Part shown: in pieces, positions 1 to 23,200 of the stretch
Layout of the letters: every line of letters starts with the position of its first letter
How positions within the stretch are numbered: position 1 is the first letter of the stretch
Origin: a virus
Taxonomy: Duplodnaviria; Heunggongvirae; Uroviricota; Caudoviricetes
IMG/VR virus record: IMGVR_UViG_2585427750_000026
Reading direction: 5' to 3' (one strand)
DNA: 24,440 nucleotides
Position numbers and translations under genes: made by a program
Notes under the pieces: generated by a model
What the model was told of the DNA's origin: nothing
Seen by the model: only the letters and a program-made list of their open reading frames with translations
Databases searched by the model: none

Positions 1-981
1 TTATAACGTCACTCCGCCTTTTAGTGGATTCAGAGCGACGGCATTTTGCAGATAGTCAGGCGCAAGGTGCGCATAGGCCATCGTCTGCTGAATGCTCGCA
101 TGTCCCAGAATCTGTTGCAGTGCGATTATATTGCCCCCATTCATCATGAAATGGCTTGCGAATGTATGCCGCAGGATGTGGGTTGCCTGATTGGGTGGTA
201 TATCAGGTTTCACTCTGCGTAAAATCCCGCAAAATTTCTCATAATCAACTTTGAATAATTTGGCGCTGGCCTCCTCTTTAACTTTTTTCTCCAGTTCCTC
301 AGAAATCGGCACGGTTCGCTTTTTACCGTTTTTGGTTTTCAGGAAGGTAACCCTGCAATTTGTAATCTGTGCTGGTTTTAGCGTGGCAACTTCCGTCCAT
401 CTTCCTCCGGTGCTCAGACATAAAAGCGCGACAAGTAAGTCATCACCAGCCAAAACATTTAACAGTTTTTCGATTTCTGCTTTTTCCAGGAACGTCATTT
501 CAGGGTTGGCCTCCGCCAGTGGCGGCAGTCCGTGAATTGGGTGTTGCCCGGAAAATTCATCCAATTGAATTAATTTTGTGAACATGCCGGATAATCGGTA
601 CATGTCACGGTTTATCGTTGCGGCACTGATACCATCACGTAGTCGCATGGAACGATAATCCATCAAAGCCCTTTTGCTCATCCTGCTCACTGGTATATCA
701 CCTATGCCGCTGATGGTTTTGAGTAGATGATTAAACTCTTTTGTTCCATGCTCGTGGTTTTGCCCGTGATATTTCCACCAGATGTCCAGCAACTCACTCA
801 AAGTCCGGCGGTCTGCTCGCTGGCCTCCCCATTCTTTCTGACTGGCATTGGCGATTGTGTATCGCTCAAATGCTAGTGCTTCAGCTTTTCTTTCGAATTT
901 CCTGCGGATGCGTTTTCCGTCGCGACCGCGAGGTCTAATGTCCACTTCATAGCGACCATCATCGAGCTTCTTAATTGCCAT
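1..981 (-). CDS. int: Tyrosine integrase (P2 Int family)
   Basis: Translation resembles P2 Int (MAIKKLDDGRYEVDIRP... N-terminus; C-terminal HxxR...Y catalytic region HTFASHFMMNGG...MAYAH). Start chosen at the ATG at 981 preceded by GGAGGG; the ORF track extends to 1011. Stop codon is at 1..3. Confidence 0.9.
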   Translation of the reverse strand: MAIKKLDDGRYEVDIRPRGRDGKRIRRKFERKAEALAFERYTIANASQKEWGGQRADRRTLSELLDIWWKYHGQNHEHGTKEFNHLLKTISGIGDIPVSRMSKRALMDYRSMRLRDGISAATINRDMYRLSGMFTKLIQLDEFSGQHPIHGLPPLAEANPEMTFLEKAEIEKLLNVLAGDDLLVALLCLSTGGRWTEVATLKPAQITNCRVTFLKTKNGKKRTVPISEELEKKVKEEASAKLFKVDYEKFCGILRRVKPDIPPNQATHILRHTFASHFMMNGGNIIALQQILGHASIQQTMAYAHLAPDYLQNAVALNPLKGGVTL

Positions 982-1050: not shown

Positions 1051-1344
1051 TTAGCCAATCCTTTTCGCGGAGTGGTTGGACTCTGTTGACTCTGGCCCAA
1101 TGTGCGCGAGAGCCGGTGCGATTTGTCCTGCGTCCGGCGCGGTTTTATCTGTCATAAGCCATAGAGCATATTTTTGGAATGTGGGATGCATAGTGATTTT
1201 TAGCAAAGCTGTGCCACCGGGTTCAAAGTTTCCTCCTTCATATTTTTTAAGTGTGCTTAGCGGTAACTCTATGATTTCACAGAATTTTGATTGGCTTAGC
1301 CCTTCAGCCTCACGCAAGGCCTTAATCTTTTCGCTTAATTTCAT
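1051..1344 (-). CDS. C: Immunity repressor, P2 C-like (HTH)
   Basis: 97 aa protein directly upstream of int on the same strand, as in P2. C-terminal QIAPALAH motif resembles what I recall of P2 C, but the N-terminal half differs, suggesting a different immunity specificity. Confidence 0.7.
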   Translation of the reverse strand: MKLSEKIKALREAEGLSQSKFCEIIELPLSTLKKYEGGNFEPGGTALLKITMHPTFQKYALWLMTDKTAPDAGQIAPALAHIGPESTESNHSAKRIG

Positions 1345-1465
1345 TTGACATGGTGCCTATATAGGGACTAAATTCCCTCAAAACTGGAACCTATATAGGT
1401 TCCATTGATTTGAGAATAAACCAGCATCTAAACGGTTTTGAGTGGTTTAGAAAGGGCTGGATCCT
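1345..1465. promoter_or_regulatory. C/cox switch region with putative early promoter and repressor operators
   Basis: TTGACA at 1345..1350 reading toward cox. Palindromic 10-mer CCTATATAGG occurs twice (1356..1365 and 1390..1399; the second lies within the perfect 16-bp palindrome GAACCTATATAGGTTC at 1388..1403), flanking a candidate -10 (TAAATT 1369..1374). This resembles the P2 arrangement of repressor sites flanking the Pe -10. Confidence 0.45.
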
Positions 1466-1753
1466 ATGAGGGTACCATATATGGACGCTGAAAATTATGT
1501 GATTCAGTATCCGCTTGATGCGGTTCATGTGGATAAATTTGCTGATTTATTAGGGAAGCCAAAGACAGCCGTCAGTGAAATGGTGAAGGCAAATAAATTA
1601 CCAATTATTGAATTGCGTGATCCTTGCAAACCGAAGGCTCGTGCCGGTGAAAAATGGGTTTTCATTCCTGAGTTTAATCGCGCTGTACGTGAGGCGTTTT
1701 ATAACCGACCGGTTGAACAGCGTGATGCATGGCTTTTGTGGATGGGGTTGTGA
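1466..1753 (+). CDS. cox: Cox-like excisionase / early-operon regulator
   Basis: About 90 aa, first gene transcribed divergently from C. Shares the KLPxI..DP...RAGExWV..P.WN...RP.E.RD.WL.WxGL pattern with P2 Cox. Alternative start ATG at 1481 (GAGGG 8 nt upstream) gives 90 aa. Confidence 0.65.
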   Translation: MRVPYMDAENYVIQYPLDAVHVDKFADLLGKPKTAVSEMVKANKLPIIELRDPCKPKARAGEKWVFIPEFNRAVREAFYNRPVEQRDAWLLWMGL

Positions 1754-1755
1754 TT

Positions 1756-1926
1756 ATGAATGAGCCGCGTTGTATTGCTCAGTTATTGCGTAACGAAAGC
1801 CCCAGGGCGATTGACTTCACCATCACCCACGGTAAGGGGCGTAAGGGAATCATTATCCGCACCAAAAAACAGAGTCCGTTAAAAAAGGCTCTGACCTTTC
1901 TGAAAAGCCGGAGGGTATGGAAATGA
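1756..1926 (+). CDS. Small hypothetical protein (position of P2 orf78)
   Basis: 56-aa ORF between cox and B; ATG 3 nt after the cox stop; its stop overlaps the start of the next gene. Confidence 0.35.
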   Translation: MNEPRCIAQLLRNESPRAIDFTITHGKGRKGIIIRTKKQSPLKKALTFLKSRRVWK

Positions 1927-2423
1927 CAGTGATGACGCTCAATCTCGTTGAAAAACAGCCAGCAGCTATGCGCCGGATAATTGGCAAGCATCTTGCCGTC
2001 CCTCGCTGGCAGGATACATGTGATTATTATAATCAGATGATGGAGCGCGAACGGCTAACGGTTTGCTTTCATGCACAGTTAAAACAGCGTCACGCAACGA
2101 TGCGTTTTGAAGAAATGAACGACGTCGAACGTGAACGACTGGTTTGTGCAATTGATGAATTGCGTGGCGCATTCTCAAAACGCCGTCAGGTCGGCGCAAG
2201 TGAGTATGCATATATTAGTTTTTTAACAGTCAGTCAGCGTCGTACTTTATTTATGCATGCGGGATTGACAGAAAAAGAATTCAATCAGCCGTACTGGCGA
2301 ATTAATGAAGAATCATGTTACTGGCGTGATGCTTTATTCCGTGCATTACGTGAATTATTCAGTCTGTTTGAGTATGCACCGACAATTCTGACGTCGGTAA
2401 AACCAGAGCAATATCTGCATTAA
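1923..2423 (+). CDS. B: Replication protein B-like
   Basis: 166 aa from the ATG at 1923 (GGAGGG 7 nt upstream), the same length as P2 B and in the same position after cox. Assignment is by synteny and length, not recognised motifs. Confidence 0.55.
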   Translation: MTVMTLNLVEKQPAAMRRIIGKHLAVPRWQDTCDYYNQMMERERLTVCFHAQLKQRHATMRFEEMNDVERERLVCAIDELRGAFSKRRQVGASEYAYISFLTVSQRRTLFMHAGLTEKEFNQPYWRINEESCYWRDALFRALRELFSLFEYAPTILTSVKPEQYLH

Positions 2424-2486
2424 ATAATTAACCAGAGTTTTTAACGCACTTAATCGTGCGGGGCTTCTTTTTGCCTGGAGAAAGTC

Positions 2487-2711
2487 ATGCATACAGTTTC
2501 TGAAAATCAGTGCGGTAAATACGCATTACTGCTGCAACAGGCCAGAACCGAAGCACAGGCCGACGCTGCGACGCGCTTTTCTTCTCATCTTGACGCCATG
2601 ATTCGCCACATCACAAAGGCGGAGTTATCCCGCGTGGAGATAGTTGAGCTGCTCAGTCAGGAGTCGGAAAAATTTCACAATATCGGATTGTCTCGCGGGG
2701 AGGTGCTTTGA
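2487..2711 (+). CDS. Hypothetical early protein (P2 orf80 position)
   Basis: 74-aa ORF, ATG with GGAG upstream, translationally coupled (TGATG) to the next ORF. Confidence 0.4.
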
Positions 2712-3013
2712 TGTCCTGTTCTCGTTCGGTTGTATTACTGAATAACGCCTTAAAAATCGCCGTTATGAAAAATGGTGATTTGTCTCTTATTCAACTTGGT
2801 ATTGATAAAGAGAAGCGCGAAATAACTGAATCTGTTATCGCGATTTATCAGAGTGAATTAAACCTCCTGTCTGATGTGGTCAATTTACTTGTTAAACGCG
2901 CTGTATTCCACAAGCAAATTTCCTCAGTGGATGAACTGACAAAATTAACGACAGAACTCGCCAGTTATTGCGCTGATGAATTTAAGAAGCTGAACGACAA
3001 AAGGAGCTGGTAA
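2711..3013 (+). CDS. Hypothetical early protein (P2 orf81 position)
   Basis: 100-aa ORF from ATG 2711; its stop overlaps the start of the next ORF (TAATG). Confidence 0.4.
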   Translation: MSCSRSVVLLNNALKIAVMKNGDLSLIQLGIDKEKREITESVIAIYQSELNLLSDVVNLLVKRAVFHKQISSVDELTKLTTELASYCADEFKKLNDKRSW

Positions 3014-3237
3014 TGCCGGACAACGTGGATTTTATTCAGGAACAACAGGCTGAATTACTGGAGCGCCAGATTAACGCGGCAAGGGTAAAACATTGCGGTG
3101 TTTCTGCGCTGGTTTGCGAAGAGTGTGACGCGCCAATACCTGCTGCCCGTCGTGCGGCTTATCCGTCAGCCACGCGTTGTGTTTCCTGTCAGTCAGTCTT
3201 TGAAGCAAAAAACAAACATTACCGGAGAACGGCATGA
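3013..3237 (+). CDS. TraR/DksA-family C4 zinc-finger protein (P2 orf82 position)
   Basis: 74 aa with CxxC...CxxC (CEECDAPIP...CVSC), typical of phage TraR-like zinc fingers. Confidence 0.55.
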   Translation: MPDNVDFIQEQQAELLERQINAARVKHCGVSALVCEECDAPIPAARRAAYPSATRCVSCQSVFEAKNKHYRRTA

Positions 3238-3509
3238 GTATTCGTATTGAAATTGGCGAACGTTATGTCGTTACCAGTGACAGCTTTCAGTTTATTCTCC
3301 ACGAGAAAAAGAGAGCGGAAAGCGGTAAAAACGCCGGTCAGGAATGGCTGGCGGTGGTTGGTTATTACCCGAAATTAGGCCAGCTCGTTTCCGGCCTGAT
3401 GCATCACGATATTCTGACCGGAAGCGCAAAATCTTTTGCTGATTTAAACGCGCAGGTTGAGCAACTCAGCAAGCGTTGTTCAGAGGCTTTTGGCTCATAT
3501 GGCCGTTAA
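3234..3509 (+). CDS. Hypothetical early protein (P2 orf83 position)
   Basis: 91-aa ORF, ATGA overlap with the upstream ORF; overlaps the start of gene A by 11 nt. Confidence 0.4.
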   Translation: MSIRIEIGERYVVTSDSFQFILHEKKRAESGKNAGQEWLAVVGYYPKLGQLVSGLMHHDILTGSAKSFADLNAQVEQLSKRCSEAFGSYGR

Positions 3510-5784
3510 AGCCTCCGGGCGTTTTGTCCCTCCGTCAGCATTTACCGCAGGCACCGGTAAGGCGTTTACCGGTGCTTATGCATGGAACGCGCCACGCGAG
3601 GCTGTCGGGCGCGAAAGACCTCTTACACGTGACGAGATGCGTCAGGTGCAAGGTGTTTTATCCACGATTAACCGCCTGCCTTACTTTTTGCGCTCGCTGT
3701 TTACTTCACGCTATGACTACATCCGGCGCAATAAAAGCCCGGTGCACGGGTTTTATTTCCTCACATCTACTTTTCAGCGTCGTTTATGGCCGCGCATTGA
3801 GCGTGTGAATCAGCGCCATGAAATGAACACCGACGCGTCGTTGCTGTTTCTGGCAGAGCGTGACCACTATGCGCGCCTGCCGGGAATGAATGACAAGGAG
3901 CTGAAAAAGTTTGCCGCCCGTATCTCATCGCAGCTTTTCATGATGTATGAGGAACTCTGCGATGCATGGGTTGATGCGCATGGTGAAAAAGAATCGCTGT
4001 TTACGGATGAGGCGCAGGCTCACCTGTATGGTCATGTTGCTGGCGCTGCACGTGCTTTCAATATTTCCCCGCTCTACTGGAAAAAATACCGTAAAGGACA
4101 GATGACCACGAGGCAGGCATATTCTGCCATTGCCCGCCTGTTTAACGATGAGTGGTGGACTCATCAGCTTAAAGGCCAGCGTATGCGCTGGCATGAGGCG
4201 TTACTGATAGCTGTCGGGGAGGTCAATAAAGACCGTTCTCCTTATGCCAGTAAACACGCCATTCGTGATGTGCGTGCGCGCCGCCAGGCAAATCTGGAAT
4301 TTCTTAAATCGTGTGACCTTGAAAACAGGGAAACCGGCGAGCGCATCGACCTTATCAGTAAGGTGATGGGCAGTATTTCTAATCCTGAAATTCGCCGGAT
4401 GGAGCTGATGAACACCATTGCCGGTATTGAGCGTTACGCCGCCGCAGAGGGTGATGTGGGGATGTTTATCACGCTGACCGCGCCGTCAAAGTATCACCCG
4501 ACACGTCAGGTCGGAAAAGGCGAAAGTAAAACCGTTCAGCTTAATCACGGCTGGAACGATGAGGCATTTAATCCAAAGGATGCGCAGCGTTATCTCTGCC
4601 GTATCTGGAGCCTGATGCGCACGGCATTCAAGGATAATGATTTACAGGTCTACGGTTTGCGAGTCGTCGAGCCACACCACGACGGAACGCCGCACTGGCA
4701 TATGATGCTTTTTTGTCATCCACGCCAGCGTAACCAGATTATCGAAATCATGCGTCGCTATGCGCTCAAAGAGGATGGCGACGAAAGAGGAGCCGCGCGA
4801 AACCGTTTTCAGGCAAAACACCTTAACCGGGGCGGTGCTGCGGGATATATCGCGAAATACATTTCAAAAAACATCGACGGCTATGCACTGGATGGTCAGC
4901 TCGATAACGACACCGGCAGGCCGCTGAAAGACACTGCAGCGGCTGTTACCGCATGGGCGTCAACGTGGCGCATCCCGCAATTTAAAACGGTTGGCCTGCC
5001 GACAATGGGGGCTTACCGTGAACTACGCAAATTGCCTCGCGGCGTCAGCATTGCTGATGAGTTTGACGAGCGCGTCGAGGCTGCACGCGCCGCCGCAGAC
5101 AGTGGTGATTTTGCGCTGTATATCAGCGCGCAGGGCGGGGCAAATGTCCCGCGCGATTGTCAGACTGTCAGGGTCGCCCGTAGTCTGTCGGATGACGTTA
5201 ACGAGTACGAGGAAGAAGTCGAGAGAGTGGTCGGCATTTACGCGCCGCATCTCGGCGCGCGTCATATTCATATCACCAGAACGACGGACTGGCGCATTGT
5301 GCCGAAAGTTCCAGTCGTTGAGCCTTTGACTTTAAAAAGCGGCATCGCCGCGCCTCGGAGTCCTGTCAATAACTGTGGAAAGCTCACTGGTGGTGATACT
5401 TCGTTACCGGCTCCCACGCCTTCTGAGCACGCCGCAGCCGTGCTTAATCTGGTTGATGACGGTGTTATCGAATGGAATGACCCGGAGGTCGTGAGGGCGC
5501 TCAGGGGCGCATTAAAACACGGCCTGCGAACGCCAAACCGTCAGCAAAGAAACGGAAGCCCGTTAAAACCGCATGAAATTGCGCCATCGGCCAGACTGAC
5601 CCGGTCGGAAAGAATGCAAATTACCCGTATCCGCGTTGACCTTGCTCAGAACGGTATCAGGCCGCAGCGATGGGAGCTTGAGGCGCTGGCGCGTGGCGCG
5701 ATCGTAAATTATGACGGGAAAAAATTCACGTATCCGGTCGCTGATGAGTGGCCGGGATTCTCAACAGTAATGGAGTGGACATAA
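3499..5784 (+). CDS. A: Rolling-circle replication initiation endonuclease gpA
   Basis: 761 aa from the ATG at 3499 (MAVKASGRF...), matching the P2 A N-terminus as I recall it. Contains the HxH-type motif (PHWHMMLF) and candidate catalytic tyrosines (GYIAKYISKN). The ORF-track start at 3457 is an upstream in-frame alternative. Confidence 0.9.
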   Translation: MAVKASGRFVPPSAFTAGTGKAFTGAYAWNAPREAVGRERPLTRDEMRQVQGVLSTINRLPYFLRSLFTSRYDYIRRNKSPVHGFYFLTSTFQRRLWPRIERVNQRHEMNTDASLLFLAERDHYARLPGMNDKELKKFAARISSQLFMMYEELCDAWVDAHGEKESLFTDEAQAHLYGHVAGAARAFNISPLYWKKYRKGQMTTRQAYSAIARLFNDEWWTHQLKGQRMRWHEALLIAVGEVNKDRSPYASKHAIRDVRARRQANLEFLKSCDLENRETGERIDLISKVMGSISNPEIRRMELMNTIAGIERYAAAEGDVGMFITLTAPSKYHPTRQVGKGESKTVQLNHGWNDEAFNPKDAQRYLCRIWSLMRTAFKDNDLQVYGLRVVEPHHDGTPHWHMMLFCHPRQRNQIIEIMRRYALKEDGDERGAARNRFQAKHLNRGGAAGYIAKYISKNIDGYALDGQLDNDTGRPLKDTAAAVTAWASTWRIPQFKTVGLPTMGAYRELRKLPRGVSIADEFDERVEAARAAADSGDFALYISAQGGANVPRDCQTVRVARSLSDDVNEYEEEVERVVGIYAPHLGARHIHITRTTDWRIVPKVPVVEPLTLKSGIAAPRSPVNNCGKLTGGDTSLPAPTPSEHAAAVLNLVDDGVIEWNDPEVVRALRGALKHGLRTPNRQQRNGSPLKPHEIAPSARLTRSERMQITRIRVDLAQNGIRPQRWELEALARGAIVNYDGKKFTYPVADEWPGFSTVMEWT

Positions 5785-6236
5785 TGGCAAAAATTCACGA
5801 GGTAAAGCTGCACGCAAAATATTTCGACCTTGTGCTGGAAGGAAAGAAACGCGCAGAGTTTCGGAAAAATGACCGTAATTATGAGCGCGGGGACACGTTG
5901 ATTTTGCATGAATGGGTGCAGGGTGTGTATACGGGGCGAAAGGTTGAAGCCCGGATAACAGATGTTACTGACCTGTCAGACTGGCTGGAAGATTATGTCT
6001 TGCTAAGTATTGAGCTGCTTAATACAGGTGCATATGAGATTGTGAACTGGAAAGAACTTAGTGAGCGTGGTCTGGTATTCAGAATTAATCATGAAATTAT
6101 GCATCAGCTCGGCCTTGCTGTTATGTATGAACCAGAGACGGGGATGTCTGGCGGGGCAATGGTTGCCACGGATGGAGCATGGAACTATTCAGATGAACAG
6201 ATGGAGCGTGCACAGCAAAACGGGTGGCTTGGATAA
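5784..6236 (+). CDS. ASCH/DUF3850-like protein (extended orf91-like)
   Basis: 150 aa from the ATG at 5784 (TAATG overlap with the A stop). N-terminus EVKLHAKYFDLVLEGKKRAEFRKNDRNYERGDTLILHEW resembles the ASCH-like DUF3850 fold by pattern. Lower GC than the replication genes. Confidence 0.5.
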   Translation: MAKIHEVKLHAKYFDLVLEGKKRAEFRKNDRNYERGDTLILHEWVQGVYTGRKVEARITDVTDLSDWLEDYVLLSIELLNTGAYEIVNWKELSERGLVFRINHEIMHQLGLAVMYEPETGMSGGAMVATDGAWNYSDEQMERAQQNGWLG

Positions 6237-6767: not shown

Positions 6768-7244
6768 ATGAGCATCGCAGCTAAAAATCTGCTTAATCGC
6801 TATTGGGATCGCCGACTACCTGTCGATCCGTTTAAGCTCGCCGCAGCGTGGGGTGCAAGAGTGGAGCCGCTCAGGGAACCAGCGAATGGGTTAAGTGGTT
6901 CAGCCGTAATAGAAAATGGCATACCTTATATTTATTTTAACTCAAATGAACATTACAACCGCCAACGCTTTACTGTAGCGCATGAGCTCGGTCATCATGT
7001 TTTAGGGCATACTCAAGACGGAGAATATCATCGCGATATTGTAGGCAACTACTCAACTGGCATCCGTGATTATCGTGAAATAGAAGCTAACCAGTTTGCT
7101 GCAGAGCTATTGATGCCGGAAGAGGCCATTCGTCAACTAGTGTCGCGTATAGGCGTTGATAGTACATTACGTTTGGCAAACATATTTAACGTTTCTGAGG
7201 CTGCTATGCACTGGCGTCTTAAAGCGTTGGGTATGGCTTACTAA
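6768..7244 (+). CDS. ImmA/IrrE-family (Peptidase_M78 / COG2856-like) zinc metallopeptidase
   Basis: 158 aa with HEXXH (AHELGHHVLGH) followed by the downstream glutamate motif EANQFAAELLMP typical of ImmA/IrrE peptidases. No fused HTH domain. Strong RBS. Confidence 0.75.
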   Translation: MSIAAKNLLNRYWDRRLPVDPFKLAAAWGARVEPLREPANGLSGSAVIENGIPYIYFNSNEHYNRQRFTVAHELGHHVLGHTQDGEYHRDIVGNYSTGIRDYREIEANQFAAELLMPEEAIRQLVSRIGVDSTLRLANIFNVSEAAMHWRLKALGMAY

Positions 7245-7311: not shown

Positions 7312-7932
7312 ATGGCAGATATCGACCTCTCTGGCCAATCTCCGGCTCAGTCTTCCCAGCCATCCAAAACTTCAACCTTTCCACATCCACCTAGCGATGC
7401 CGATCCAGATATTTTGTTACGTAGAGAAGTGCATGATGGCATGGAAAGGAGGGGAATGCGCTTAGTTTTGTCAGCCACCGTACTTTTTTTTGCCATAATG
7501 TTTTTATGGAAAGGTCTGTATTTCGCTCTCGAAGTCGGAAATGGTTTGCTTGCGGCTAAAAGTAGTATTGTTTCAGCGTTGGCACAAAATGATGAAAAGG
7601 TTGTTTGCGAACCTAAAACTAAATGTATTGAGCCTAAACAGCAGACAATGAAACCTACAGAAAAAACTCCCGGCATGTCAACAAAGGGTGATAGAGTAAT
7701 GCCAAACTTATCTACAGATTGGCTTTCTGCAAGTTCGCTAATTGCCATAGTCGCTTTCATCCTTGGTGTTGGCTTGACGTTAATCCTTACCCTACTTAAG
7801 TCCGCTTTTCATCATCCGACTGATAAAAATCTCAATGAGCAAAAAACAACAGATGCGATTGAGTTGGCGACTCCCTTAAGTGAGTTAATCGCGGGTATTA
7901 TTAATTATCTCAAGAGCAAATTTTCTAAATAA
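7312..7932 (+). CDS. Two-transmembrane-helix membrane protein, unknown function (candidate effector)
   Basis: 206 aa with two hydrophobic helices (LVLSATVLFFAIMFLWKGLYFAL and LIAIVAFILGVGLTLILTLL) separated by a hydrophilic loop of about 70 aa containing two Cys. Lower GC than the phage core. Confidence 0.6.
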   Translation: MADIDLSGQSPAQSSQPSKTSTFPHPPSDADPDILLRREVHDGMERRGMRLVLSATVLFFAIMFLWKGLYFALEVGNGLLAAKSSIVSALAQNDEKVVCEPKTKCIEPKQQTMKPTEKTPGMSTKGDRVMPNLSTDWLSASSLIAIVAFILGVGLTLILTLLKSAFHHPTDKNLNEQKTTDAIELATPLSELIAGIINYLKSKFSK

Positions 7933-20872: not shown

Positions 20873-23200
20873 ATGAGCACAAAATTCAAAACCGTTATCA
20901 CCACTGCTGGTGCAGCAAAGCTGGCAGCGGCAACCGCGCCGGGAGGGCGGAAGGTCAACATTACCACGATGGCCGTCGGGGATGGCGGTGGTAAATTGCC
21001 TGTCCCGGATGCCGGACAGACCGGGCTTATCCACGAAGTCTGGCGACATGCGCTGAACAAAATCAGCCAGGACAAACGAAACAGTAATTATATTATCGCA
21101 GAGCTGGTTATTCCGCCGGAGGTGGGCGGTTTCTGGATGCGTGAGCTTGGCCTGTACGATGATGCTGGAACGTTAATTGCCGTGGCGAACATGGCTGAAA
21201 GTTATAAGCCAGCTCTTGCCGAAGGCTCAGGGCGTTCGCAGACCTGCCGCATGGTCATCATCGTCAGCAGTGTGGCCTCAGTGGCGCTGACCATTGACAC
21301 CACAACGGTGATGGCAACGCAGGATTACGTTGATGACAAAATTGCAGAACATGAACAGTCACGACGTCACCCGGACGCCTCGCTGACCGCCAAAGGTTTT
21401 ACTCAGTTAAGCAGTGCGACCAACAGCACGTCTGAAACACTCGCCGCAACACCAAAAGCGGTAAAAGCAGCATATGACCTTGCTAACGGGAAATACACTG
21501 CACAGGACGCCACCACAGCGCGAAAAGGCCTTGTCCAGCTCAGTAGTGCCACCAACAGCACGTCTGAAACGCTCGCCGCAACACCAAAAGCGGTAAAAGC
21601 AGCATATGACCTTGCTAACGGGAAATACACTGCACAGGACGCCACCACAGCGCGAAAAGGCCTTGTCCAGCTCAGTAGTGCCACCAACAGCACGTCTGAA
21701 ACGCTCGCCGCAACACCAAAAGCGGTAAAAGCAGCATATGACCTTGCTAACGGGAAATACACTGCACAGGACGCCACCACAGCGCGAAAAGGCCTTGTCC
21801 AGCTCAGTAGTGCCACCAACAGCACGTCTGAAACGCTCGCCGCAACACCAAAAGCGGTAAAAGCAGCATATGACCTTGCTAACGGGAAATACACTGCACA
21901 GGACGCCACCACCGCGCGAAAAGGCCTTGTCCAGCTCAGTAGCGCCACCAACAGCGATTCTGAAACGCTTGCGGCAACGCCAAAGGCGGTTAAGACAGCG
22001 TATGACCTTGCTAACGGGAAATACACTGCACAGGATGCCACCACAGCGCGAAAAGGTCTTGTCCAGCTCAGTAGCGCCACCAACAGTGATTCTGAAACGC
22101 TGGCTGCAACACCAAAAGCGGTGAAGTCTGCCTATGACAATGCTGAAAAACGTCTTCAGAAAGATCAGAACGGTGCGGATATTCCTGATAAAGGACGCTT
22201 CCTGAGTAACATTAATGTTTACAGCAAAGGTGAAGTGGATAAGAAAAAGGGAATGCGAAAGTATTCGTTTGCAGCCCCTGCAAATGTCGTTGCCGGGAAG
22301 TGGTATCCCGTTATCTTTCGCCGTGCTGCCAGCCTTTCAGGAGAAATGGCATCCCGCGTCGTTATTTCAACTGGTTGTTATAACGGCGATTATGTAATGA
22401 ATAACTGCGAGTTTAATGGCATGGTTATGCCCGGAGGCTGGACCGATCGTGGTTCATATGCGGCAGGTTATTTCTGGACGTATCAGACTAATGAGCGTTC
22501 AATCCATTCCATTGTTACAAGCCTGAAAGATGATGATGTATGTAGTGTTTTTTATGTTGAAGCCAGAGCTTTCCCTGTGCAAATTCTTGCAGAGGAAGGG
22601 CTAACGGTTATTGTTCCGACAGAGGATTATGTCGTCGGTCAAACGACATATAAGTGGGGGGCAACTAATCCCGCTACAGAAAGCACGAACGCACAGGCTA
22701 TTCTGGATTTTAAAAATGGACGTGGTTATTACTGTTCACATCCATTTATTTCCAGCCTTTCAGGAAATGCTGCAACAGCAACGAAGTTAGCGAACGCAAG
22801 AAATATTAATGGTGTCAGATTTGATGGCTCTGCCGATATAAATATTAATACACTGGTATCCAGAAACCGTGTTAATGCATTAGGTGGGAGCGTAAAGGGG
22901 ACACCAGGTATTCAGATGTATGAGGCATACAACAATGGCTACCCAACAGCCTATGGTAATGTGCTTCATCTCACTGGCGTAACCGCAGTAGGAGAGGGTG
23001 AGTTACTTATTGGCTGGAGTGGAACCAGCGGTGCTCATGCTCCGGCATATATTCGTTCCCGACGAGATACCACAGATGCTAACTGGTCTGGATGGGCGCA
23101 ACTATATACAACTGCTCATAAACCCTCAGCGGGAGATGTTGGTGCATACATAGACTGGCCCCCTGAATCTCCAGACAACCAATATCACTTAAATAAGTGA
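20873..23200 (+). CDS. H: Tail-fibre protein gpH, repeat-expanded and 3-prime interrupted by IS2
   Basis: N-terminus [20 protein letters not shown] is P2 H-like. Contains about 5.7 in-frame copies of a 44-aa repeat. The last 16 codons plus stop (23153..23200; the boundary codon at 23150..23152 straddles the junction) are read from the IS2 terminal repeat, so the native C-terminus is missing. Confidence 0.85.
21392..22135 (+). repeat. Tandem 132-bp (44-codon) in-frame repeat array in H, about 5.7 copies
   Basis: Unit KG(F/L)(T/V)QLSSATNS(T/D)[12 protein letters not shown](A/T/S)[18 protein letters not shown] starting at 21392, 21524, 21656, 21788, 21920 and 22052. Copies 2 and 3 are nucleotide-identical, copy 4 differs by one base, and copies 1, 5 and 6 are more divergent. 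Confidence 0.9.

Follow-up and report, generated by a model that had tools for sequence, protein, structure and literature searches.

A P2-type C/Cox switch of the L-413C immunity type with two palindromic repeats as probable repressor operators

We analysed the immunity switch carried by a 24,440-nt stretch of caudoviral DNA (IMG/VR record IMGVR_UViG_2585427750_000026; the whole stretch is called the window below). The switch lies at positions 1051-1753 and consists of a repressor gene, C, a cox gene and the short control region between them. It is highly likely that it is the P2-type C/Cox switch of a Peduovirus prophage with the immunity type of phage L-413C, in which C would bind two sites centred on the 10-bp sequence CCTATATAGG and repress the early promoter Pe. 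C (1051..1344, minus strand, start codon CAT at 1342-1344) encodes a 97-aa helix-turn-helix protein of the Pfam family HTH_3. The int gene to its left (1..981, minus strand) encodes a tyrosine integrase of the Wphi type, whose start at 981 (MAIKKL...) fits the length of Wphi Int and the int expression primer used for phage HQ103; int is transcribed together with C from the leftward promoter Pc. On the other side of the 136-nt control region (1345-1480), cox (1481..1753, plus strand) encodes a 90-aa Pfam Phage_Cox protein (E=1e-23), a repressor of Pc and an excision factor, and the open reading frame (ORF) list gives orf78, B, orf80-83 and A, in this order, as the early genes to its right. The gene order is thus that of a P2-type switch, with int-C leftward, cox-orf78-B...A rightward and a short intergenic control region between them, a helix-turn-helix repressor of about 100 aa and a Cox-family protein as the first product of the early operon. 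The start of cox is most likely ATG 1481 rather than the in-frame ATG 1466 upstream, since ATG 1481 is favoured by a Shine-Dalgarno sequence (GAGGG, 1468-1472), by Wphi, by most records and by the HQ103 expression clone. Database records disagree on this point; L-413C and vB_EcoM-569R9 are annotated with a 95-aa Cox and the others with the 90-aa form.

A search of the PDB with C matched P2 C alone at E<=0.01 (structures 2XCJ and 2L49, E=1.9e-21), and the alignment covered residues 3-97, i.e., the full length of the protein. The proposal in the first-pass annotation of this DNA, made from the sequence alone, that a QIAPALAH-like segment is the only likeness of this repressor to P2 C was therefore not borne out. 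The predicted recognition helix of C contains PLSTLKKYEGGNFEP. Cox matched the P2 Cox structure 4LHF (E=3.8e-20). The amino-acid identities to P2 and Wphi were 42.4% and 55.7% for C, 38.3% and 82% for Cox, 48.6% and 96% for Int, 97.9% and 97.9% for A, and 99.4% and 98.8% for B. These values agree with the earlier impressions that gene A is nearly identical to that of P2 and that C and Cox have clearly diverged from their P2 counterparts. Local blastn of the window against the P2 genome (AF063097) revealed 97.2% DNA identity over 1755-6004, and leftward of 1755, about two bases past the cox stop codon, the identity fell to patches of 70-80%, which places the right-hand mosaic junction with P2 at 1754..1755 and upholds the suggested swap of the immunity region. 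In a sliding comparison with Wphi the strongly divergent cassette was narrower (~1100-1630), running from the helix-turn-helix half of C across the control region into the N-terminal half of cox. These comparisons uphold the reading of the region as heteroimmune to P2 through module exchange, in agreement with the description of recombination as the driver of immunity-class diversification in P2-like coliphages (PMC3448106).

Pe was the sole sigma-70-like site reported by the promoter scan in 1000-1800. Its -35 hexamer TTGACA (1345..1350, plus strand) directly abuts the C start codon, a position conserved in Wphi, P2 and other classes, and after an 18-nt spacer it is followed by the -10 hexamer TAAATT (1369..1374), the homologue of TATATT in the Pe of Wphi. 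From an alignment with the Wphi promoter as annotated, transcription is predicted to start at ~1380-1381. CCTATATAGG occurs exactly twice in the window, at 1356-1365 and 1390-1399, 34 bp apart from centre to centre and on either side of the Pe -10, precisely as the first-pass annotation had described. When one mismatch was allowed, the matches in the window were still two against 0.18 expected, and with up to two mismatches the two copies alone were recovered against 4.15 expected; the whole 24-kb window thus contains no distal operator copies at this threshold and gives no sign of long-range looping sites. The 10-mers are indeed palindromic, as had been noticed, and each is the core of a longer dyad of ~20 bp that had escaped notice. 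The proposed operator O1 (1351..1370) is the 20-bp dyad TGGTGCCTATATAGGGACTA located in the spacer between the -35 and -10 hexamers, and the proposed operator O2 (1385..1404) is the perfect 20-bp palindrome TGGAACCTATATAGGTTCCA covering ~+5 to +24 of Pe. The symmetry extends to 16 of 20 positions in O1 and to all 20 in O2, and TGGnnCC is present in three of the four arms, the fourth running into the -10 hexamer. As judged from the sequence, the region therefore has the two repeated half-sites spanning Pe that characterise a P2-type switch. The repeat scan listed the 10-mer pair as an inverted repeat (I2), not as a direct repeat. First-order Markov simulations of the control region (136 nt) put the probability of a direct repeat of at least 10 nt at ~0.015 and that of a pair of 10-bp palindromes at ~0.012. 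This test is moderately strong, since the TATATA-rich composition inflates the frequency of palindromes, and the comparative evidence is the stronger argument. A full-text literature search for CCTATATAGG returned unrelated papers only.

A precedent is Wphi, whose operator was mapped by mutagenesis, electrophoretic mobility shift assay and surface plasmon resonance to two 10-bp half-sites located 34 bp apart from centre to centre and flanking the Pe -10 (PMC1904268, PMC1904263). When the two regions are aligned, the repeats of the window match the Wphi half-sites TATTGGTGAC position by position after a shift of 2 nt; the -35 hexamer is shared and the -10 hexamers are homologous. As in the window, TTGACA abuts the C start codon, and one repeat is located in the Pe spacer and the other just past +1; Pe and Pc of Wphi face each other, as would Pe and the candidate Pc of the window. 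Wphi differs in its recognition helix (ALGTVKNYESGH vs PLSTLKKYEGGN), in its half-site, which is TATTGGTGAC and is not palindromic at O2, and in ~19 extra bp before cox, which carry the Wphi Pc -35. P2 resembles the window in its protein folds (by sequence homology), in gene order and in operators that flank the Pe -10, but its half-sites are 8-bp GTTTAGAT sequences that are spaced by 22 bp and are non-palindromic.

The two repeats are very probably the binding sites of the C repressor, as indicated indirectly by their alignment with the mapped Wphi half-sites, by natural variation including that in virulent phages, and by covariation with the recognition helix; the same evidence strengthens the earlier suggestion that the arrangement is a plausible operator for this immunity type. 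To assess variation we used 58 contigs, of which 35 came from IMG/VR and 23 were metagenomic, that were anchored on flanks outside the operators only, because an initial pattern scan of IMG/VR had fixed the operator bases and was hence blind to their variation. The sequence across 1328-1425 was identical to that of the window in 54 of the 58 contigs, and three others had a single change each, at 1348 (-35), 1374 (-10) or 1404. Both 10-mers were intact in 57 contigs. The exception was R18C, in which each copy carries one change (1364 G>T and 1390 C>T). Five variants sampled from 105 non-identical matches in E. coli (at 1351, 1352, 1374, 1375 and 1406) also left the 10-mers untouched. Two C homologues, one from Enterobacter (L008) with 61% identity and one from Dryocola (L011) with 73%, retain the helix-3 motif STLKKYE.G(N/K)FEP, and both control regions have two CC(T/C)ATATAGG sites flanking the -10, at a spacing of 29 bp vs 34 bp in the window, in intergenic regions that otherwise cannot be aligned. 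Where the helix-3 sequence of the homologue is another one (Wphi, P37, L007, L009, P2), the repeats differ too. Such covariation would place the specificity, and hence the heteroimmunity, in helix 3 and the sequence of the repeats.

The changes in the Pe hexamers were seen as rare prophage variants in IMG/VR, metagenomes and E. coli, TTGACA>TTGGCA at 1348 and TAAATT>TAAATC at 1374, the latter twice independently (L069, L065 and one metagenome contig). They would weaken the lytic promoter and may be a sign of prophage domestication.

Further indirect support for the operator reading comes from published experiments with HQ103. A fragment amplified with primers that map exactly to 1320-1380 drives GFP expression (PMC10321612). 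This fragment holds the -35 hexamer, O1 and the -10 hexamer and ends at the predicted +1, and its sequence is identical in HQ103 and the window. Full-length C supplied in trans from a prophage of E. coli EC12 blocks HQ103 plaques, whereas the truncated C of HQ103 does not (PMC10321612); the C protein in the EC12 record that we examined is identical to that of the window. The sole difference between HQ103 and the window over 1051-1753 is the 7-bp frameshift deletion in HQ103 C.

The switch itself is already known: it is a widespread immunity type of the P2 family, that of L-413C. The 703-bp region 1051-1753 was 99.0-99.9% identical in 18 phage records, among them the Yersinia/Escherichia phage L-413C (AY251033), HQ103, R18C, P24B2, FSL SP-004, vB_YpM_50 and P2_AC1 as well as a "P2" record (KC618326) from O157:H43 T22, and gene order, promoters and repeats of the L-413C group are the same as in the window. 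The C protein was 100% identical in L-413C, R18C, FSL SP-004 and the E. coli EC12 prophage, and likewise in most of the near-identical phages. The control region was present in 420 of 5,426 complete E. coli genomes (~8%), always on the chromosome and in one copy per genome, with at least 99% identity in 418 of the 420; in 315 genomes the sequence across 1345-1408 was exact. The EC12 prophage adjoins cpxP, in agreement with an attachment site of the Wphi type, as was reported for L-413C (PMC3448106). According to Karlsson/Nilsson, in the form in which PMC3448106 cites them, phages share an immunity class when their C proteins are at least 95% identical and the operator/spacer region is the same. 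The window and L-413C have 100% identical C proteins, and their intergenic regions are identical save for three changes in L-413C and one polymorphism. Comparison of C and Cox with the known classes, which had been proposed as a check, thus assigned the window to neither the P2 nor the Wphi class but to the L-413C type. Wphi immunity (class III) was rejected, because C is 55.7% identical and the half-site TATTGGTGAC is replaced by CCTATATAGG, and P2 immunity (class I) was rejected, because C is 42% identical and the GTTTAGAT pair at 22 bp is missing. A single GTTTAGAT occurs on the reverse strand of the window at 1426-1433, where it is polymorphic.

Two members of the class are described as lytic or virulent although their C genes are intact. 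L-413C is a lytic, clear-plaque derivative of the temperate phage L-413 (PMC3448106, PMC2893161), and the publication on R18C describes it as a virulent phage of the P2 type without giving a molecular reason (PMC6823313). Relative to the wild-type operator sequence of the window, R18C has the two changes described above, 1364 G>T in O1 and 1390 C>T in O2. L-413C has three changes, of which 1356 C>A falls in O1, 1373 T>C in the -10 hexamer and 1402 C>A in the outer arm of O2. The 35 other sequences that matched the surrounding operator pattern uniformly had C, T and C at 1356, 1373 and 1402. The operator changes of the two phages fall on both arms of both sites, left (1356) and right (1364) in O1 and left (1390) and right (1402) in O2, and all of them affect G:C pairs that flank the TATATA core. 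In Wphi the mutation of one half-site is tolerated, and both have to change for escape from C (PMC1904263). By analogy, the paired changes in R18C and L-413C fit the Wphi pattern of escape through a double half-site mutation. L-413C also has a P51L substitution in Cox (codon 51, window position 1632), which was not seen in six other phages of the class. A paired operator mutation would be analogous to lambda vir.

In the mechanism that we propose, Pe would fire rightward into cox, B and A, and a weak leftward promoter close to the beginning of cox would supply C. C would occupy both O1, between the Pe hexamers, and O2, a few bases past the transcription start, 34 bp or about three helical turns apart, and when both sites are filled RNA polymerase would be blocked at Pe, so that the resulting immunity would be specific to the operator sequence. 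One symmetric C dimer would sit on each ~20-bp dyad, with the consensus TGGnnCCTATATAGGnnCCA, and the two dimers would act together, probably bending the DNA as the P2 and Wphi C proteins do. The assignment of one dimer to each dyad is deduced from the 16/20 and 20/20 symmetry, from the shared TGGnnCC arms and from the virulent changes on both arms of both sites, and we give it about an even chance. We regard as similarly balanced the joint proposition that a complete ~20-bp dyad at each half-site is bound by a symmetric C dimer and that L-413C and R18C are lytic through paired operator mutations and not through loss of the repressor. Neither the dyad-per-dimer arrangement nor the operator-mutant explanation was found in the literature by a search that did not extend to the L-413C genome paper (Garcia et al. 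2008).

The crystal structure of P2 C is compatible with such an arrangement in that the dimer it revealed is symmetric and positioned to reach two major grooves in succession, and its authors described the non-palindromic P2 repeats as a puzzle and named P22 c2, 434 repressor and C.Esp1396I as structural neighbours of P2 C (PMC2995052). These three proteins, C.Esp1396I above all, resemble the mode suggested for the window, with a symmetric dimer on each dyad and two neighbouring dyads filled jointly, but the likeness is one of mechanism only, without a close sequence relationship detected. C.Esp1396I binds as two dimers on directly repeated palindromes with a dyad spacing of 15 bp, vs 34 bp in the window. 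When 15 control regions were scanned for symmetry, dyads at both positions were found in the CCTATATAGG group and in the L009 group, whose repeats have the form GGTnnn-N4-nnnACC, although the O2 dyad of phiT5282H, a member of the L009 group, was weak (5 of 8 pairs). A dyad at one position was found in Wphi (O1) and in Hafnia L010 (O2), and significant dyads were absent in P2, P37, SW3, D8 and pro147. This distribution implies that the experimentally studied members happen to be the least symmetric ones.

Several observations weigh against our reading. The literature search found no binding, footprint or operator-mutant reporter data for this immunity class. Which mutations cause the phenotypes of L-413C and R18C is unproven; in L-413C the -10 hexamer (1373) and Cox (P51L) are altered as well, its O2-side change lies outside the 10-mer, and the available part of the R18C publication contains no lysogeny test (PMC6823313). 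Since P2 and Wphi are described as recognising non-palindromic direct repeats, palindromy may not matter for recognition at all. A dyad or hairpin that other classes have at the corresponding place overlaps O2, and thus part of the O2 symmetry could serve RNA. Finally, the HQ103 fragment bound by H-NS (1195-1380) includes O1.

Other explanations of the repeats were also weighed. C might read its operators as in the P2 model, in which one subunit per dimer contacts a 10-bp direct repeat and the palindromy is incidental or serves bendability through the TATATA core. The half-sites of P2 and Wphi were reported as non-palindromic direct repeats (PMC2995052, PMC1904268), the five regions without significant dyads in the symmetry scan are in line with this model, and the repeat shared in L011 is an asymmetric 14-mer, GGACCTATATAGGG. 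The model nevertheless leaves unaccounted for the presence of TGGnnCC in three of four arms, the symmetry of O2 over 20 bp, the virulent-phage changes on both arms of O1 and O2, and the internally symmetric repeats of L009 and phiT5282H, and we consider it unlikely. A clearly smaller probability is given to selection for RNA structure, with an O2 stem-loop acting as a stabiliser at the 5' end of the Pe transcript or attenuating C and int in the Pc leader, and with O1 as a by-product. The O2 region folds with -11.3 kcal/mol on the plus strand (z -3.7) and -18.2 kcal/mol on the minus strand (z -5.4), the scan flagged the palindrome as terminator-like, and a stem-loop or dyad embracing O2 recurs in place in other classes, most strongly in P37 and L008 and more weakly in Wphi and L007, with arms that differ and are apparently compensated (TCAAAAGG/CCTTTTGA in Wphi vs CGAAAAGG/CCTTTTCG in P37). 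Yet the identical 10-mer of O1, which folds weakly (-7.1 kcal/mol) and is located upstream of the Pe start, would be left unexplained, and so would the Wphi operator geometry and the one change per copy in the virulent phage. Since the mapped half-site of Wphi sits in a hairpin loop, RNA and operator features can coexist, and an RNA or larger DNA-dyad function may exist alongside the operator function. In the window, the hairpin embracing O2 spans 1375-1415 (-16.4 kcal/mol, z -5.5), and its Wphi counterpart (L001) lies at ~1360-1400.

It is more improbable still that the repeats are sites for Cox or for a host nucleoid protein with a preference for AT-rich DNA, such as H-NS or IHF. H-NS does shift the Pe and Pc fragments of HQ103 and silences Pe at 21 C (PMC10321612), and the TATATA cores are AT-rich. 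But Cox-family proteins act at Pc and at the attachment site via short direct repeats, H-NS binding needs no conserved 10-bp palindrome with G:C ends, and both the covariation with the C recognition helix and the Wphi homology point to C. A chance repeat in an AT-rich intergenic region is the least credible explanation. The value of p~0.015 obtained with the region-trained Markov model is not vanishingly small, but the 10-mers do not vary among 57 of the 58 independent contigs or in any sampled prophage variant, are kept in relatives whose C proteins are only 61-73% identical, and are positionally homologous to mapped operators. Chance is effectively refuted by these conservation data.

The overall importance is modest; the switch itself is catalogued and very common. 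What may be new is the assignment of the operators, the account of L-413C and R18C as operator mutants, and the clean palindromic operators of this class. A specific and well-supported operator prediction is now available for the class. The operator changes offer an explanation for the lytic behaviour of L-413C, which is used in plague diagnostics, and of R18C, which was proposed for work on Citrobacter and Shigella, despite an intact C in both. This would matter for the safety assessment of phages, as only a few point mutations would separate such "lytic" P2-like phages from a temperate lifestyle. The clean palindromes also make the class well suited to studies of DNA recognition by P2-type C dimers. 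If one dimer does occupy each dyad, the class would be a natural system in which to resolve how symmetric dimers of the P2 family read so-called non-palindromic direct repeats.

The leftward promoter is less distinct than Pe. The standard promoter scan reported no Pc and no strong leftward promoter in this region. In a relaxed scan the best minus-strand candidate (8 of 12 matches) was a weak putative promoter at 1474..1503, with ATCACA (1503-1498) as the -35, an 18-nt spacer and TATGGT (1479-1474) as the -10. This -10 is homologous in position to that of the annotated Wphi Pc, whereas the Wphi -35 falls in the stretch before cox that the window lacks. A transcript from the candidate would start near 1464-1467. 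The HQ103 "Pc" reporter fragment maps to 1407-1466, which by homology with Wphi corresponds to the transcribed leader only, the promoter elements being located at ~1468-1503 and partly inside cox. Thus, the "non-functional" Pc of HQ103 may reflect a reporter fragment without the promoter; hundreds of E. coli strains (the 420 carriers) stay lysogenic with this very sequence.

The overlap of the Pe and Pc regions contains five matches to G(A/T)TT(A/T)GA(A/G/T) (GWTTWGAD) within 1377..1452, at 1377 and 1426 on the minus strand and at 1407, 1435 and 1445 on the plus strand; the repeat scan also listed the inverted repeats I4-I6. Five of the 17 matches in the window are thus found within 76 bp, and two of them (1435 and 1445) are direct repeats 10 bp apart. 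The cluster is a speculative candidate for Cox boxes, and the motif was defined after the sequence had been seen.

In L008 (Enterobacter hormaechei, 1065-1409), L010 and L011, distant C homologues that share the recognition helix and have operators of the CCTATATAGG type are found without a recognisable Cox partner. The rightward gene of L008 encodes a 114-aa protein without a Pfam match, and it is followed by an ORF resembling the ATPase of an insertion sequence (IS) element. It seems that C and the operators form a module able to combine with different lytic-side partners.

Elsewhere in the window, a tandem array at 21413-22122 repeats a 132-bp unit 5.4 times (96% matches) within the region of the tail-fibre gene H; the counterpart of this segment in P2 (13252-13458) is a single copy. 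The segment 5784-7932 between A and cos (the "TO" moron region) differs from P2 and contains three ORFs. The ORF at 5784-6236 encodes a DUF3850/ASCH-domain protein, and that at 6768-7244 a Peptidase_M78 protein (ImmA/IrrE-like, with an HEXXH motif; E=8e-23). The third (7312-7932) encodes a 206-aa protein without a Pfam match, in which a hydrophobic stretch is suggestive of a membrane protein.

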